From a virus, in UHGV virus genome UHGV-0123951: DNA of 36,881 bases; one strand, 5' to 3'. The stretch's first letter is position 1. The number at the start of each line of letters is the position of its first letter. The notes under the pieces were generated by a model. The model worked only from the letters and a program-made list of their open reading frames with translations, had not been told where the DNA came from and made no database searches. This document shows positions 3,700-36,097 of this stretch, one piece after another. Both the position numbers and the translations under genes were made by a program.

Positions 3700-3912
3700 T
3701 TAAAACGTCAAATTGCGTATCAGTGGAGCAGCTGTAGAACCGCCAGTCATTTGTACCTTGACGCGGTTCACTGATGGCTTGCTGCGTTCTTCGCCGGTAA
3801 AGATATTGAACATGCACGGTCCCAGAACTGTGCGAGGAACCCCACGTAAAACCACCACTTCCCCAGCCTTGGGGTGCTTGCGATAAGCCTTGCGCCGTTG
3901 TGCTGCATTCAT
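3700..3912 (-). CDS. putative N-like antitermination protein (70 aa, arginine-rich N-terminus)
   Basis: First gene downstream of PL/OL; N-terminus MNAAQRRKAYRKHPK resembles an arginine-rich RNA-binding motif; GAGGG RBS. Confidence 0.35.
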   Translation of the reverse strand: MNAAQRRKAYRKHPKAGEVVVLRGVPRTVLGPCMFNIFTGEERSKPSVNRVKVQMTGGSTAAPLIRNLTF

Positions 3913-4017
3913 CGTGTAACCCTCAGTTTTTAGTCATGCTCAGCGAATCATCCGGTTATTCATACGCCACCGGCGGCTACTTCGTGGGCGTCCTGCCCGT
4001 TCGCTGTTAATGTTATT

Positions 4018-4047
4018 AATGTAGGATAACTTACTATTTGGGGTCAA
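4018..4047 (-). promoter_or_regulatory. PL-like promoter (-35 TTGACC, 18-nt spacer, -10 TACATT on minus strand)
   Basis: Hexamers read on the minus strand, overlapping operator repeats. Confidence 0.4.
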
Positions 4048-4069
4048 GTGGAAATGTTGGATAACTTAC
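4021..4069. promoter_or_regulatory. OL operator repeats (GTAGGATAACTTAC at 4021-4034; GTTGGATAACTTAC at 4056-4069)
   Basis: Two copies of a 14-bp near-palindrome, same consensus as the cI-cro intergenic sites. Confidence 0.55.
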
Positions 4070-4078
4070 ATTGAGGGG

Positions 4079-4104
4079 CGAAAAAAAACCGGGTATTCCC
4101 GGTT
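4079..4104 (-). terminator. intrinsic terminator after cI (possibly bidirectional)
   Basis: Hairpin AACCGGG-tatt-CCCGGTT flanked by an A8/T8 run immediately 3' of the cI stop. Confidence 0.6.
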
Positions 4105-26844: not shown

Positions 26845-27564
26845 ATGGCTTTAATTAAATGCAAAGAGTGTGGAGAACAGGTATCTGATAAGGCCGCATC
26901 ATGTCCAAAGTGCGGAGCTCCCATAGCAAAAAAAAACAAAGGCCCATCGGGATGTATGATGGTGTTTTTTATTTTTGTAGGGGTTCTTATCCTTCTTTTG
27001 TTTATTGGCAAAGTAAGCAATAAAAAAGAAGCACCTAGCCAAACAGTGGGTAGCACTCAGGTAAGCACTGATAAGTTGAAAAATGATGTCGTAAAAGAAG
27101 TAGAGGTAAAAAAAGAACCAGTTACAGTTATTAACTGGCATAACCAACCCACGAAAGATAGCGTTACTGGTGAGGTTGGGGAGATTTTTTATAATACATC
27201 GAAAAACCATGTTAATTTCCCATTCCCATACAACGTTGATGGTGGTTCTGTACTCAACTTGGTTTTCCGCAAAAGAAAACAAGGTACTGATGCCTATGTC
27301 GTGATATCTAAAGGTCAGATTGTATGTGGTTACTCAGATTGCTCAATAAGAACGAAGGGCGATAACGGAAAGGTAAAAATCTGGACTGCAAGTAGTGAGG
27401 CGTCTGGAAGATCAGATATGATTTTTCTTGATAACCCACAGTCTTTCGAAAAATATATCAAGAGCAATAAAAAAATCACTATTGGAGTGACATTTTATCA
27501 ATCTGGCGAACAGGGGTTCGATTTTGATGTTTCAGATTATCCAGAGCAAGCAAAGAAAAAATAA
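26845..27564 (+). CDS. zinc-ribbon, single-pass membrane protein (239 aa), AT-rich moron
   Basis: N-terminal CxxC-x12-CxxC, hydrophobic helix (MMVFFIFVGVLILLLFIG), ~180-aa Lys-rich C-terminal domain; AGGAGA RBS. Confidence 0.6.
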   Translation: MALIKCKECGEQVSDKAASCPKCGAPIAKKNKGPSGCMMVFFIFVGVLILLLFIGKVSNKKEAPSQTVGSTQVSTDKLKNDVVKEVEVKKEPVTVINWHNQPTKDSVTGEVGEIFYNTSKNHVNFPFPYNVDGGSVLNLVFRKRKQGTDAYVVISKGQIVCGYSDCSIRTKGDNGKVKIWTASSEASGRSDMIFLDNPQSFEKYIKSNKKITIGVTFYQSGEQGFDFDVSDYPEQAKKK

Positions 27565-27638: not shown

Positions 27639-30113
27639 GTGGCAAGTAAATCATTAGGTACATTAACGATAGACTTAATTGCCAAAGTTGGCGGCTTTGT
27701 TGGCGGCCTAAGCCAGGCTGAAAGGGCATCGCAGAAATGGCGAAAACAGGTTCAAGAGGATGCAAAATCTGTAGCTGTTGCATTCACAGGGGCAGCAACT
27801 GCAGCAAGCGCCGCTGCTATTGGCGTAGGTGTGGCTGGATACAACCTGTTAAAAAACACCTCCAGGCAAATTACTGAGTCTGACCGTTGGGCTAAGTCGC
27901 TCAACATGTCTACTCAATCATTACTTGCTTGGCAGTATGCTGCAGAAAAAGCAGGTGTTTCAGGCGATCAAATGGCTGATATTTTTAAAGATATCGGAGA
28001 TAAAATTGGTGACTCGGTACTGAATAAATCAGGTGAGGCAGTAGATGCATTGGATGCACTCGGTTTATCAGCTAAAAAATTATCGAGTGAATCGCCGGAT
28101 AAGCAACTTTTAGCCATAAGTGATGCGCTAAGCAAGATTAAAACAAACGCTGAAAAGACTACTATTCTTGAAAGCTTGGGTAACGATCTCTCTAAGTTGC
28201 TTCCTTTGCTTGATCAGGGCGGTGATAAATTACAAAAATATATTAAGGCTGCGAAAGAATTTGGCGTAGCACCAGATGATACCGATATAGAAAGTCTCGT
28301 AAAAGTTAATTCAATCTTTGAGGATATGGAAAACCAAGTTAAAGGGGTTAAGATTGAATTATCAGCTGGATTAGCAAAGGTTGACCTTTCTAACCTGCAG
28401 AAATCAATTAGCGACATGGGTGATGTATTTAAAGACCATGAAGTTATCAAAGGTATCACCAACCTTGTTAGTGGCGTGGTCGACCTCGCTACCTGGCTTG
28501 TTAAGGTTGGAGCGGAAGCAGGAAAACTCATCGATCTTTACAAAGGGGGACAGGCAGTAGGGGAGAATGCATCTATAGAGGAAATTGATCGTCGCATAAG
28601 AAACCTTGATGCAGATTTAAATGACGAAGGTTTTCTTGCAGATTTCAACAGATTAGGAATGGATGTGGAAAGGAAACGGGCTGAACGATCAGAGCTTGAA
28701 CGCCGCCGAGCAATCCTTAAAGCAGGAAATAACCTACCTCTATATCCAGCAACCATAGGTAATTATTCTTCATCTAAAACAGATTATGGTCTTGACGCAG
28801 GAGAATCAAACGGGAAATTAAAAACTGATACTTCAGCAAAAAAAATTGAATCAGCTTTTAAATCAATGGAGACAAGTTACCTCCGTCAGATTGCTCTCAT
28901 CGACACCACTGGAAAGAAAAGCGCAGAAGTTACTGAACAGCAAAAACTACAATTTGATATCGCTGACGGAAAGCTAAATGGACTTAATGAAACACAGAAG
29001 CAACGCCTTGAACAACTGGCTACAGAGGTTGATCGCCTAAATTCCGTAAAAAAGGCAAACGAGGAAAATCTAAAACTGGCTGAATACGTATCGAACCTTC
29101 AGCGTGAAAATGCGAATTCAGCGGCTTCTCTTGATGCAGATGTCATTGGCGCAGGACTCGGTGATAAAGCCCGCGAAAGGATGCGTGAGCAACTCAGCAT
29201 TGAACGCGAATTTCTGGAGAAGCGAGAGGATTTGCAACGGCGGTATCAGAGCGGAGATATTCGTAGCCAAGAGGATTATGACCGTTATAACCAGGAACTG
29301 GACAAAGCGCTTGCTGAGCGACTCGATAAATACCGTTCTCATTATGACCAACTGGATGAGTTACAGGGAAACTGGCTGGCAGGGGCTCAGAATGGTCTGG
29401 CTAACTGGGTAGATACTTCCAGCGATTATTACACTCAGGTATCAGATTTAGTCGGTAACACCCTTGATGGCCTGGTGGATAACATGGCTGATGCCCTCAG
29501 TGGTAATAAAGCTGACTGGGCAAGTTGGGCGAACAGTGTGTTGAATGAGCTGCAGAAAGTCTTGCTCAGGGCAATTATGGTCAACACGCTTAAATCTGCT
29601 GGTGATAGCGGTTGGTTTGGTTCACTTGGTGGGATGTTTGGTAGTTCAGTGGCTGGCGCAGCATCCGCTGGCGGTGCAACACCGTCCGGAGCTTATACAG
29701 GTGCGGCATCTCAATTGAAATTCGCCAAGGGTGGTGTAATGGATTCGCCTGATCTTAGTCGTTTCCGTAATGGCGTCGTGAACAGTCCGACGATGTTTGC
29801 TTTCGCCAAAGGTGCGGGGCTCATGGGAGAAGCTGGTCCTGAAGCTATTATGCCCCTTACGCGTACTGCTGACGGTAACCTCGGTGTTCGTATGGTGGAT
29901 GACACGGTTTCTTCTGTTGGCGGTGGTGGTGCTCAGCTCCAGCAAACTATTCAGCAGCATTTCTCTATTTCCGGTAACGGAGATGCCGCACTGAAGCAGG
30001 CTATGCAGGAAGCTGCACGACAGGGTGCTAATGATGGTGCAAAACAGGCGCGTAAGGATTTGCTTCAGGATTTCTCTAATAGAGGACAGGCAAGGCGATT
30101 ACTTGGCGTGTAA
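27639..30113 (+). CDS. tail tape measure protein (824 aa), GTG start
   Basis: Long coiled-coil-rich ORF after the G/GT chaperone; GGAGGA RBS before GTG. Confidence 0.85.
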   Translation: MASKSLGTLTIDLIAKVGGFVGGLSQAERASQKWRKQVQEDAKSVAVAFTGAATAASAAAIGVGVAGYNLLKNTSRQITESDRWAKSLNMSTQSLLAWQYAAEKAGVSGDQMADIFKDIGDKIGDSVLNKSGEAVDALDALGLSAKKLSSESPDKQLLAISDALSKIKTNAEKTTILESLGNDLSKLLPLLDQGGDKLQKYIKAAKEFGVAPDDTDIESLVKVNSIFEDMENQVKGVKIELSAGLAKVDLSNLQKSISDMGDVFKDHEVIKGITNLVSGVVDLATWLVKVGAEAGKLIDLYKGGQAVGENASIEEIDRRIRNLDADLNDEGFLADFNRLGMDVERKRAERSELERRRAILKAGNNLPLYPATIGNYSSSKTDYGLDAGESNGKLKTDTSAKKIESAFKSMETSYLRQIALIDTTGKKSAEVTEQQKLQFDIADGKLNGLNETQKQRLEQLATEVDRLNSVKKANEENLKLAEYVSNLQRENANSAASLDADVIGAGLGDKARERMREQLSIEREFLEKREDLQRRYQSGDIRSQEDYDRYNQELDKALAERLDKYRSHYDQLDELQGNWLAGAQNGLANWVDTSSDYYTQVSDLVGNTLDGLVDNMADALSGNKADWASWANSVLNELQKVLLRAIMVNTLKSAGDSGWFGSLGGMFGSSVAGAASAGGATPSGAYTGAASQLKFAKGGVMDSPDLSRFRNGVVNSPTMFAFAKGAGLMGEAGPEAIMPLTRTADGNLGVRMVDDTVSSVGGGGAQLQQTIQQHFSISGNGDAALKQAMQEAARQGANDGAKQARKDLLQDFSNRGQARRLLGV

Positions 30114-30154
30114 GCATTATTAATATTCATTAAGCCGAAAGGCGGGAGACTGTT

Positions 30155-30484
30155 ATGACTTTAGAACAACGAATTGAGTCACTTGAATTTAAAGTAGGGT
30201 TTCCGAAAGAAAATGGAGTAAGAATTTCTTTCGGAGAAAATTTGGCCATGTCATCTACGCAGCGCATTGGTAGTAACGTGTCGGTGAAAATTGGCAAAGC
30301 AACCGTAGCTACTATCCAGTACAGCGAAGACTTAACGCCAGAACTTACCCTGGAAGGGTACAATCAGCGGGCGAAAGGGCATGCTCAAAATGTTGTCACG
30401 AAGATTATTGAAGCGGCCACAAATCAGGCCGCGAATGGTTTTTATACCTTAAAATTAGGAATTAAGACTGATGCAGTCCTTTGA
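30155..30484 (+). CDS. hypothetical protein (109 aa), AT-rich
   Basis: Track ORF with GGGAGA RBS; 3' end overlaps a convergent minus-strand ORF. Confidence 0.45.
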   Translation: MTLEQRIESLEFKVGFPKENGVRISFGENLAMSSTQRIGSNVSVKIGKATVATIQYSEDLTPELTLEGYNQRAKGHAQNVVTKIIEAATNQAANGFYTLKLGIKTDAVL

Positions 30485-30677
30485 GATTGCCAACCCATTG
30501 CTGAATCGATGGGGAATCAATCTGTGATAACTCCTTAATGATTTGCTGGCGACCCTCATTGTCTAATTTCAAAGCTACGCTAAGAAGGATCATTTTAATA
30601 TCATTTAATTCATCAGCGACTTCCTTCAGGCTTTCTTTTTTTGAATTAAATTGAACTTTTGCACTTACTTCGTCCAT
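30462..30677 (-). CDS. hypothetical protein (71 aa), AT-rich, antisense to the late operon
   Basis: Track ORF with AGGAAG RBS on the minus strand. Confidence 0.4.
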   Translation of the reverse strand: MDEVSAKVQFNSKKESLKEVADELNDIKMILLSVALKLDNEGRQQIIKELSQIDSPSIQQWVGNLKGLHQS

Positions 30678-30841
30678 ATAACTTCCTTATCCAGAGGTAA
30701 TCAGCCATCCCTCCTAATCAGAAAACGCCAGTGTCCCACCACTGACGGGCTGAGTAACAACCATAACCAGGTATGTAAATCAGTAACATCCTGACAAATG
30801 ATCAGTAGCGCCAACGTGCGCAGAATAATGCAGGAGAATCT

Positions 30842-31435
30842 ATGGCTGTACTCGAATGGCCGGAAGATGTCTGTCCCGCGTCGCTGACCTGGCGACCGGA
30901 GAGTAATACCAAAACTTTTCGTTCCCCCTTCAATGGCTCATCGCAGACAGCTCGCTTTCCCGGCACCCGCTGGGTATGTTCCCTGACCTTTAATAACCTG
31001 ACGGACGAAAAATCCAGGCGTATTGATGCCCTGGTGGCTTCCCTCGATGGTGAGTATGGCAGGGTAAAAGTTCGCGACTGGGGGAGAAGTGGCAGAGCGC
31101 CAGCGGGCGTGCCCGTTGTTGATGGAGCTAATCAGACAGGGACCCAGATTCAAAGCAAGGGCTGGGCGCCGGGAACAGTTGTGCTCAGACAGGGCGATTA
31201 TTTCACAGTTAACGATGAACTGAAGATGGTTACAGCCGACGTGACGAGCGCGGCGAACGGTACCGCAATGATTGCCTTTGCGCCGATGTTACGTAGCTCA
31301 CCACCTGCTAATGCTGCCATTGAAGTTGCGAAACCCTACGGCATTTTCAAACTGAAGGATAACCAGCAGGGCGCCGGTAACCGTGTGCCGGGTGTTTTTA
31401 CCAGTTACACGCTGGAGCTTGAGGAGGCATTTTAA
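30842..31435 (+). CDS. minor/distal tail protein (197 aa)
   Basis: Position after tape measure; AGGAGA RBS. Confidence 0.65.
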   Translation: MAVLEWPEDVCPASLTWRPESNTKTFRSPFNGSSQTARFPGTRWVCSLTFNNLTDEKSRRIDALVASLDGEYGRVKVRDWGRSGRAPAGVPVVDGANQTGTQIQSKGWAPGTVVLRQGDYFTVNDELKMVTADVTSAANGTAMIAFAPMLRSSPPANAAIEVAKPYGIFKLKDNQQGAGNRVPGVFTSYTLELEEAF

Positions 31436-35152: not shown

Positions 35153-36097
35153 ATGCCTGAAGGAATTCTGATCGACTACAATGATGGACGCCCGGCAATG
35201 GCAATTACTGCAGGGCTGCGTGCCCCAAGTTTTTGCACATCCTTCTCGGGCTGGTCATCCCAGTCAATGCAGTACCCGGTCAATACGCCACTTGTTCCCG
35301 GCTCACTGGCTATCGTTGTACCCACCAATCCCATTTACATCTATTCCTTCGCTGAATTTGATGTGGCCATTATGACAGGAGTCACCCGAAACGGGGACGC
35401 CGGGGTCATCATTGGTGCTGAGACAATCGGTGGTAAAGCCCTTACTCCGGATTGGTCAGGCTACGTCATGGAGCTGCTGCCCGCGGCGACTTATAACGAA
35501 GGGCTGTTTATTTCAAACTCGACAGACTTTACCGCCATCTCCAACCAGGCCGCCCTGATGACCTGCGCTTATTCCGGGCGCATTACGGTTAGCGGCAGCG
35601 CGCCGCTTCCGGTGGGTGGTATTCCTTTTGGTAAATGGGATAACCCGAATGTGTCTGTGGGGTTTAATGGCAGCGACATCATCGTTCGCGATATTTCCTA
35701 CTACGGGCGGGACGACGTGGCCGGAACGGCGACGATTGACCTGGTGATATTCAATCAGACAGCACCTGTCGGCGGCGACGGTATCACAATGACCAACGCC
35801 GCAGGCCAGGTCACGTTCTCCACGCTGAAACGCCCTTTTGTCTATGACCGGCAAATCCAGATTACCGATGCCTTTCAGGATATTGGGGGCGGGTTCTGCC
35901 AGATAGTCTATACCGGCGTTCAGGTGCGTATGAGTGGTGGATGGGGAAATATCAGAACCAAAGGCGTGGTCATGTCAGGTGGTAGCGTCAGGTCAGCCTA
36001 CAACAAAGTGTTTGCGGACCGCTATTCTGGCGCATGGGATATGACCCGTAACAGAAATATCGCCATGCCCATTCTAATTCTTCCGAACATGTACTGA
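35153..36097 (+). CDS. tail-associated hypothetical protein (314 aa)
   Basis: Track ORF between host-specificity gene and tail fibre gene. Confidence 0.5.
   Translation: MPEGILIDYNDGRPAMAITAGLRAPSFCTSFSGWSSQSMQYPVNTPLVPGSLAIVVPTNPIYIYSFAEFDVAIMTGVTRNGDAGVIIGAETIGGKALTPDWSGYVMELLPAATYNEGLFISNSTDFTAISNQAALMTCAYSGRITVSGSAPLPVGGIPFGKWDNPNVSVGFNGSDIIVRDISYYGRDDVAGTATIDLVIFNQTAPVGGDGITMTNAAGQVTFSTLKRPFVYDRQIQITDAFQDIGGGFCQIVYTGVQVRMSGGWGNIRTKGVVMSGGSVRSAYNKVFADRYSGAWDMTRNRNIAMPILILPNMY

Follow-up and report, generated by a model that had tools for sequence, protein, structure and literature searches.

UHGV-0123951 is a viral genome of 36,881 nucleotides (nt), called the window here in its full length, and is a mosaic lambdoid Salmonella prophage whose head genes resemble those of mEp235 and CharmingMan and whose tail tip resembles that of FSL SP-016 and SW-37. 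Between its tape-measure gene (27639–30113, Tape_meas_lam_C) and its distal tail protein gene (30842–31435, phrog_1302) lie two small convergent open reading frames (ORFs), one of 109 amino acids (aa) on the plus strand (30155–30484) and one of 71 aa on the minus strand (30462–30677), whose 3′ ends share 23 nt (30462–30484). An original prediction, made from the letters of the DNA, had described this pair as convergent, overlapping and AT-rich, with a ribosome-binding site (RBS) for each gene. Re-reading the sequence reproduced its coordinates, strands, lengths, overlap and RBSs (GGGAGA lies 5 nt upstream of the ATG at 30155), and the measured guanine-cytosine (GC) content agrees: the plus ORF has 42.1%, the minus ORF 37.0% and the two together 40.2%, compared with 51.0% in the window and 52.8% in the distal tail genes. 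The segment that holds the pair is, in our view, probably a mobile two-gene moron cassette, in which a minus-strand cargo gene has its own promoter, leader and terminator and the plus ORF is an accompanying late gene (Table 1).

Results

Morons, in the definition of Juhala and Hendrix, are stretches of extra DNA of differing base composition that have their own promoter and their own terminator and are expressed from the repressed prophage. The segment 30114–30841 is an insertion, because the corresponding tail modules of Serratia phage Serbin and Escherichia coli phage FritzHoffmann lack it, the tape-measure gene there being directly adjoined by a homolog of the distal tail gene. It is thus extra DNA between genes that are neighbours in relatives, and the cassette occupies other junctions in other phages; its GC content (40.2% against 51.0% and 52.8%) sets it apart from its surroundings, and a GC-rich hairpin (30413–30432) supplies a putative terminator of its own. 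A structural tail protein was rejected on the absence of the segment from Serbin and FritzHoffmann and on the varying position of this type of plus ORF among phages. The segment is therefore not a conserved structural tail gene, the outcome that the original prediction had held out as counting against it.

The length of the two ORFs proves nothing, since similar sizes arise by chance and many antisense ORFs of 90–190 aa occur in the window; it is their conservation that marks them as genuine. The plus ORF belongs to phrog_11851 in the PHROGs database (expectation value (E) 1e-53) and has 61 homolog clusters, in Salmonella and Citrobacter, with a median ratio of non-synonymous to synonymous substitution rates (dN/dS) of 0.24 over its conserved core (285 pairs). 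The minus ORF belongs to phrog_6806 (E 8e-29, spanning residues 1–70 of 70), with an in-frame dN/dS of 0.13 from only 4 pairs. These ratios indicate purifying selection on both reading frames. In Salmonella enterica the two are annotated as the neighbouring ‘hypothetical protein’ genes LE640_001639 and LE640_001640. The statement that neither ORF has a recognisable family is borne out by Pfam, NCBIfam and PADLOC but not by PHROGs, and the minus gene is a member of the Srb family of phage HK022.

Table 1. Features of the cassette in the window.
Feature	Position	Strand	Basis or remark
Whole AT-rich cassette, 728 bp	30114..30841		Between tape-measure stop and distal-tail start; relatives without the segment, GC content
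Small GCC-GAAA-GGC hairpin (30134-30143) and RBS GGGAGA of the plus ORF	30134..30149	+	Sequence reading
Plus ORF, MTLEQRVEALE type (phrog_11851)	30155..30484	+	Core aa 1-93; aa 94-109 an unconserved read-through tail
GC hairpin GCGGCC-N8-GGCCGC, presumed intrinsic terminator of the minus gene	30413..30432		Encodes AATNQAA of the plus ORF
Cargo gene, 71-aa three-helix protein, HK022 gp23 (Srb) / phrog_6806 family	30462..30677	-	PHROG, BLAST chain, profile, model, dN/dS
Shine-Dalgarno (SD) sequence AAGGAAG of the cargo gene	30682..30688	-	4 nt before the ATG at 30677; AAGGA-type site kept in the leader alignment
Leader hairpin 2, stem GGAGG/CCUCU, invariant 12-nt loop GAUGGCUGAUUA	30693..30714	-	Leader alignment
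UUUUCU run directly after hairpin 1	30720..30725	-	Window only, among 106 leaders
Leader hairpin 1, 8-bp stem, loop GUGGGA	30726..30747	-	Leader alignment
5′ box UCAGCCC	30747..30753	-	At or beside the predicted transcription start
Predicted -10 TATGGT (TAnnnT class)	30760..30765	-	Leader conservation
Conserved upstream box ACTGATCATTTGTCAGGATGTTACTGAT (CTG-N9-CAG plus CAGGRTGTT)	30779..30805	-	Leader conservation; overlaps the -35 region
Degenerate remnant of a plus-strand intrinsic terminator	30808..30821		4-bp stem, without a T run here

The minus gene is preceded by a control region of about 150 nt (30678–30830) that recurs at 75–86% DNA identity in 23 phage records. Read in the orientation of the gene, the conserved elements follow one another as a late-strand terminator, the box ACTGnnnnnnnnTCAGGRTGTT, the hexamer TAnnnT, UCAGCCC, hairpin 1, a variable linker, hairpin 2, the SD sequence and the start codon. 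RNA structure was assessed on an alignment of 106 leader sequences, with the window as row 1, against 500 column shuffles and slid controls on five measures. In hairpin 1, 97.5% of the cells are paired and changes occur on both sides at all 8 pairs, one position being mostly U·G (66 sequences); in hairpin 2, 94% are paired, with replacements of A-U by G·U and of G·U by G-C. On none of the five measures did any of the 500 shuffles match the observed pairing, and the slid controls were 36–47% paired. The selected structure belongs to the RNA of the minus gene, because on the opposite strand its U·G pairs would become A·C mismatches. In addition, the loop of hairpin 2 contains GGCUGA, the complement of the 5′ UCAGCC (99.4% pairable), and the only changes seen in these boxes give U·G. 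Hairpin 2 also contains GAUUACCUC, which resembles the 3′ end of 16S rRNA, GAUCACCUC.

Several known types of leader element were considered and rejected. A five-codon upstream ORF in hairpin 2 (AUG GCU GAU UAC CUC UGA) varies in stop and frame across leaders, the GGA of the hairpin 1 loop that would make a CsrA site is variable, complementarity to the OmrA/B seed rests on bases that are not conserved, and an architecture like that of preQ1-I has no Rfam match. Rfam gave no match at gathering score over the whole window, and only chance matches (E of 5 or more, searched to E 10) over 30000–31000.

Ahead of the structured part, 101 of 105 leaders have the TAnnnT hexamer, and in 95 it stands 6–7 nt before TCAGCC. 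It occurs in 12 variants, all of which retain T1, A2 and T6, a pattern of conservation that looks like that of a -10 element. The box upstream of it may be the binding site of a regulator; as RNA, it found no structural support in the alignment tests. Two inverted repeats in this upstream part, CAGGGT/ACCCTG and CTGAT/ATCAG, were rejected as RNA helices for weak or no support, and a LexA box was rejected by inspection, the upstream TACTGT...CAG having the form CTG-N9-CAG, where LexA spacing is N10. At the far end of the region, HK022, ES18 and SPN3UB, among others, end the cassette with a strong terminator on the plus strand, GCCACC-N4-GGTGGC and then T7 (L001 3895–3925, L003 2625–2655). In copies between a tape-measure and a distal tail gene, the window included, this terminator is degenerate, perhaps because that operon differs in how much read-through it needs.

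At the other end of the minus gene, the presumed terminator starts 29 nt after the cargo stop codon and lies inside the plus ORF. The same holds for all 28 of 28 distinct pairs, with the hairpin 8–80 nt past the cargo stop and compensatory variants in its stem. Across the family it is mostly GCGGCC-N8-GGCCGC and usually encodes A-A-x-x-x-A-A. The hairpin is also a joint: up to 30432 the plus ORF of the window matches FSL SP-016 at 89%, and from 30411 it matches SPN3UB at 80%, the two kinds of DNA meeting at 30413–30432. Homologs of the plus ORF cover about 85% of the query and then diverge, conservation stopping near aa 93, at the hairpin. In the predicted structure, a four-strand sheet and a helix (66–93) are modelled with a predicted local distance difference test (pLDDT) score above 90 for most of aa 10–90 (block means 91–95 for residues 11–80), and residues 96–109 fall below 50 and are predicted to be disordered. 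Because the tail past the hairpin is unconserved and predicted disordered, the 23-nt overlap appears to be a by-product of where the frame closes in cargo-specific DNA. The extent of overlap varies among relatives from -9 to +54 nt, and a plus ORF is absent from about half of the cassettes, so the antisense interference that had been read into the overlap is not supported by the comparison.

The minus gene, antisense to the late operon, had been suggested to be expressed from its own promoter in the lysogen. That it is an autonomous unit, and may be so expressed, is supported by the conserved -10-like element, the structured leader and its own terminator hairpin, together with the annotation of its homolog HK022 gp23 and its positional counterpart ES18 gp25 as morons or possible morons.

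Phages that carry the leader include HK022, HK633, mEp213, mEp043, ES18, Oslo, SPN3UB, FSL SP-016, SW-37, Evi, CharmingMan and SaltyDalty, and in every phage examined it stands directly 5′ of a small gene that opposes the late operon. At the same 75–86% identity it is found, mostly unannotated, in 117 complete E. coli genomes. One exact 19-mer of the leader occurs in at least 119 IMG/VR contigs and another exact core motif in at least 120; in the window, the exact 19-mer and 16-mer matches fall within 30694–30747. About 49 species-representative genomes carry the leader, all of them Enterobacterales, and the other approximately 58 matches of the 17-mer scan are in line with chance. Behind this one leader stand 68 distinct cargo proteins, mostly of 65–98 aa, which BLAST and hhalign divide into at least 12 unrelated families. 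These include the Srb, HK633/mEp213 and ES18 gp25 groups, beta-rich proteins, DUF1883 proteins and a few larger proteins.

Some leaders depart from the common form. At loci L215, L217, L219, L246, L250, L252 and L280, the same cargo families stand behind a divergent ‘type 2’ leader (…GGTCAGCCCACTCTAGCC…GGAATGGCTGATTTACTC…), which is paired with plus ORFs of the MTLEQRLAAVEAELE type. In Pantoea, hairpin 1 is shorter and different. The leaders of Xenorhabdus and Photorhabdus (L284–L381) have no hairpin 1 and retain UCAGCC and hairpin 2, which suggests that these two elements form the core of the leader.

The original prediction had named conservation of the pair across prophages as a check, and the same convergent layout indeed recurs in SPN3UB, HK022 and ES18. 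In SPN3UB, a 68-aa plus ORF (0032) converges on a 71-aa minus ORF (0033) between gpM and gpL; SPN3UB_0033 is 79% identical to the 71-aa protein of the window, and the C-terminal part of SPN3UB_0032 matches the tail of its plus ORF. HK022 carries gp22 (plus) and gp23 (minus, ‘srb protein’) between gpI and gpJ, both annotated ‘moron gene product’ (record AF069308), and gp24 and gp25 of ES18 and Oslo are annotated ‘possible moron’ with putative terminators, the site in ES18 being gpM|gpL. The sites known for the cassette are thus varied: between tape-measure and distal tail genes, gpM|gpL, gpI|gpJ, after Rz, in the holin-lysin gap and after a glycosyltransferase gene.

Cassettes also occur in more than one copy and in places that annotation passes over. 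SPN3UB has a second one upstream of its tape-measure gene (L001, 476–673 minus, leader 669–858), whose 65-aa cargo SPN3UB_0029 is also of the Srb family, and two copies are likewise present in IMG/VR contig 2558860447_000004 (L077, L081) and at locus L051. In FSL SP-016 (L002, about 3864–4085 minus), an annotated 310-bp ‘gap’ after SP016_00105 contains the conserved leader and, judged from an identical plus ORF in IMG/VR locus L018, an unannotated 73-aa cargo gene (MDIEVLKRSLDR...). At L099 (IMG/VR 2875658422_000005), a 238-aa transposase-like ORF takes the place of the cargo, about 350–1070 nt after the start of the plus ORF, which suggests the insertion of an insertion sequence (IS) into the cassette.

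A convergent ORF beginning M-x-L-E-x-R-V-x-x-L-E accompanies 65 of the 141 cassettes that have enough flanking sequence, 348–606 nt from hairpin 2. In the reverse test, in which bona fide MTLEQR-type ORFs were sought by their start sequence, the leader motif was present within 1 kb for 78 of 96; the remainder mostly had point variants of the leader, the divergent ‘type 2’ leader or an IS insertion. This linkage makes the plus ORF a component of cassettes located in tail operons. Upstream of it, CCGAAAGGCGGGAGAC is kept in most copies that follow a tape-measure gene. The plus ORF exists in a short coiled-coil form (51–78 aa) and a long form, to which that of the window belongs; the long form accompanies Srb-like cargo as well as cargo clusters 8, 10 and 17. 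A specific partnership of the two proteins is disfavoured, since the type of plus ORF does not track the cargo family.

The 71-aa protein shares 18% identity with HK022 gp23 in a colinear alignment, and a BLAST chain leads from it to an intermediate (E 4e-4) and on to gp23 (E 2e-7). Members of the Srb family have in common the motif E-V-x-x-L-K-x-h-h-G-h-h-h-A-K-L-P. A profile built from 11 of them retrieves 79 clusters, all ‘hypothetical’ and none with a Pfam domain, nearly all from Enterobacterales, with one Pseudomonas plasmid record. The AlphaFold2 model consists of three helices (mean pLDDT 84), and the protein has no hydrophobic segment (grand average of hydropathy -0.45). A literature search found no paper on HK022 srb that would give the meaning of the name, and UniProt says just ‘Srb protein’.

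A toxin-antitoxin or known anti-phage defence system was rejected, as no PADLOC family matches either protein and all Pfam and NCBIfam matches score below the cut-offs; PADLOC has no family for HK022 gp23 either. The top Foldseek match of the model in the Protein Data Bank (PDB) is Rip1, the ring-interacting pore of HK446 and Pseudomonas prophages, which was set aside for its values (E 1.8, probability 0.06, template modelling score 0.25); HK446 is not among the phage records that match the leader. Searching PDB sequences with the Srb profile returned only spurious coiled-coil repeats (DC-SIGNR neck, protein A), and hhalign linked the Srb family neither to P22 Pid nor to the other cargo clusters.

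Discussion

The closest known system to the pair is HK022 gp22/gp23. There too, the tail operon holds a minus gene of about 73 aa that is overlapped by a small convergent plus ORF, the terminator hairpin lies inside the plus ORF, the leader is that of the window at 81–86% DNA identity over 95–120 nt, and gp23 is of the same protein family. HK022 differs in the site (gpI|gpJ), in gp22, which is not of the MTLEQRVEALE type, and in keeping the strong plus-strand terminator. ES18 gp24/gp25 and SPN3UB 0032/0033 and 0029 share the leader and convergent pair with the window; ES18 gp25 differs in belonging to another cargo family (95 aa) and in its site (gpM|gpL), and SPN3UB in having two cassettes.

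More distant parallels come from other prophage genes. The pid gene of P22 and BTP1 resembles the cargo in being a small (86-aa) helical ORFan set against the late region; it has its own promoter and a Rho-independent terminator (PMC3573128, PMC7067206), as is predicted for the cargo, and the cassettes of HK633 and mEp213 after Rz lie in the same general late-region neighbourhood. Its leader, however, has a TTGACA promoter and none of the conserved boxes, and hhalign detects no sequence homology between Pid and any of the cargo clusters (probability below 10%). Pid is expressed in the carrier state in P22 and in lysogens of BTP1 (PMC3573128, PMC7067206), and its known effect is the derepression of dgo (PMC3573128). 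HK97 gp15 is, like the window cassette, a moron in the tail operon beside the tape-measure gene, and this small prophage-expressed protein gives superinfection exclusion (PMC3594210); it is an inner-membrane protein, whereas the 71-aa protein has no hydrophobic segment, and the sequences are unrelated. Pid and HK97 gp15 are precedents for morons that lie antisense in a late region and have a promoter and a terminator of their own. By analogy with HK97 gp15 and P22 Pid, our best guess is that the cargo protein binds a protein of the host or of an incoming phage and so gives superinfection exclusion or host modulation. Integron gene cassettes offer a further parallel, by analogy only, in having one expression platform for many unrelated, exchangeable small cargo genes; unlike integrons, the cassette has no integrase and no attC site, and its cargo would presumably be exchanged through homologous recombination at conserved arms.

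If the segment is a mobile moron cassette, host RNA polymerase in the prophage, where the late operon is silent, would start near 30753 at a weak σ70-type promoter. The transcript would cross a structured leader of about 76 nt (hairpin 1, hairpin 2 and possibly the pairing of the 5′ end with the loop), which would control its stability or translation, the 71-aa protein would be made, and transcription would end at the hairpin (30432–30413). Expression in the prophage or the carrier state would follow from this arrangement. During lytic growth, opposing late transcription would suppress the moron, probably by collision. As the hairpin lies within the reading frame of the plus ORF, ribosomes translating that ORF would melt the cargo terminator in the late mRNA. 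Conserved arms, formed by the plus ORF up to the hairpin and by the leader, would permit homologous recombination to swap cargo between phages, which would account for the many unrelated cargo families behind one leader.

A number of observations weigh against this interpretation. Matches to the -35 consensus are poor, at only 2–4 of 6 positions, and a consensus promoter scan finds nothing at the cassette. U-richness after the terminator hairpin is moderate (UUCAAUAAUCUU here, with a family median of 5 U in 12 nt). Both UCAGCC and the loop of hairpin 2 are nearly invariant and show no covariation, so that the constraint could act on DNA. For either protein, Pfam, NCBIfam and PADLOC returned no significant match, every Pfam and NCBIfam match falling below the cut-offs, and Foldseek of the 71-aa model against the PDB gave no match with E below 1. 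Finally, hairpin 1 with its UUUUCU run looks like a terminator or attenuator in this copy, and in the minimum free energy fold the run pairs with the SD sequence AGGAAG. Because it could end transcripts prematurely or mask the SD, the window copy may be poorly expressed.

How the leader acts admits two readings that are not mutually exclusive. One, which we entertain tentatively, is that it is an undescribed cis-regulatory RNA and the portable platform of cassette exchange, with the MTLEQRVEALE-type ORF as an adaptor. Its core would be a pseudoknot of UCAGCC with the invariant loop of the GGAGG/CCUCU hairpin, which would mimic the 3′ end of 16S rRNA, and the leader would gate cargo synthesis to a particular state of the cell or phage. 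Lambdoid, ES18-like and P22-like (SaltyDalty, CharmingMan) phages, with prophage hosts in Salmonella, E. coli, Citrobacter, Pantoea and Xenorhabdus, would use it to shuffle dozens of unrelated small accessory proteins, and the adaptor ORF would make the cassette terminator transparent to late transcription in tail operons. The other reading, which we rate as rather unlikely, takes the control region to be constrained as DNA, as a regulator or recombination site at the cassette boundaries. Neither the 16-nt core GATGGCTGATTACCTC nor the box TCAGCC shows covariation, both being essentially invariant, conserved arms around variable cargo suit exchange by recombination, and the mosaic joint of the window lies exactly at the shared hairpin; yet hairpin 1 has compensatory changes at all 8 pairs, both hairpins contain strand-specific U·G, and the one-sided changes in UCAGCC all give U·G.

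Other explanations assign the pair different roles. An improbable one is that the minus-strand transcript serves mainly as antisense RNA, directed at late mRNA from the resident prophage or from a related phage that superinfects, and pairing over the 3′ end of the plus ORF and the intergenic region. Such a transcript, predicted to run from about 30753 to 30413, is indeed fully complementary to late mRNA, with 72 nt of the plus ORF in the complementary stretch, and BTP1 provides a precedent in STnc6030, an RNA antisense to late genes that excludes superinfecting BTP1 (PMC7067206). STnc6030, however, is non-coding, whereas the minus strand here encodes a conserved protein that is under purifying selection (dN/dS 0.13; 79 clusters). 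Unrelated cargo is swapped behind the same leader, so there would be no fixed antisense target, the stretch shared with the plus ORF varies between -9 and +54 nt, with none at all in about half of the cassettes, and the region covered contains no RBS of an essential late gene. It is more improbable still that the two proteins are partners, the plus ORF a late antidote or self-immunity factor and the minus ORF a prophage toxin or defence protein. Tight linkage (78 of 96 plus ORFs with the leader motif within 1 kb, most others with variant leaders) and a convergent arrangement that would give opposite timing of expression speak for such a pairing, but the same type of plus ORF stands beside unrelated cargo families, near-identical cargo (79%) in the window and SPN3UB stands beside different plus-ORF middles, only 65 of 141 cassettes have the plus ORF, and PADLOC matches neither protein. 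That the plus ORF is an ordinary tail structural or assembly gene and the minus ORF a chance antisense frame is hardly credible. The plus ORF does lie in the tail operon with a good RBS and under purifying selection, and antisense ORFs of such size abound in the window; related tail modules, however, lack the whole segment, the same type of plus ORF occurs at gpM|gpL in SPN3UB-type phages, and for the minus ORF there are 79 family clusters, membership of a PHROG family and a dN/dS of 0.13.

Morons are where prophages keep genes that change the host, for exclusion, defence or the modulation of virulence, and most have been found singly. For the window alone the result is modest, the pair being a typical moron. 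The cassette family is more organised than annotations suggest, combining a structured leader common to its members with cargo that can be exchanged and an adaptor ORF. One leader signature points to hundreds of small genes that are unannotated or ‘hypothetical’, including the Srb family and DUF1883 proteins, and these share a control element in the model phages HK022, ES18, mEp213 and HK633. The leader is a cheap handle for mining prophage accessory genes. It is also a candidate regulatory RNA that can be tested, showing covariation and having no counterpart in Rfam, and the cassette illustrates concretely how cargo exchange could be driven by conserved flanks. A literature search that left out the original genome papers, Juhala et al. 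2000 for HK022 and Casjens et al. 2005 for ES18, found no account of a shared leader combined with exchangeable cargo and an adaptor ORF.

Elsewhere in the tail region of the window, the distal tail gene is followed by genes for a 194-aa tail protein, a DUF6950 protein and a 906-aa J-like protein. The ORF at 26845–27564 (plus) occupies the position of the HK97 gp15 moron and has weak PHROG matches to families of unknown function only. Just past the J-like gene, a 314-aa ORF (35153–36097, plus) matches phrog_1265, a membrane protein in the category moron, auxiliary metabolic gene and host takeover (E 1e-118).

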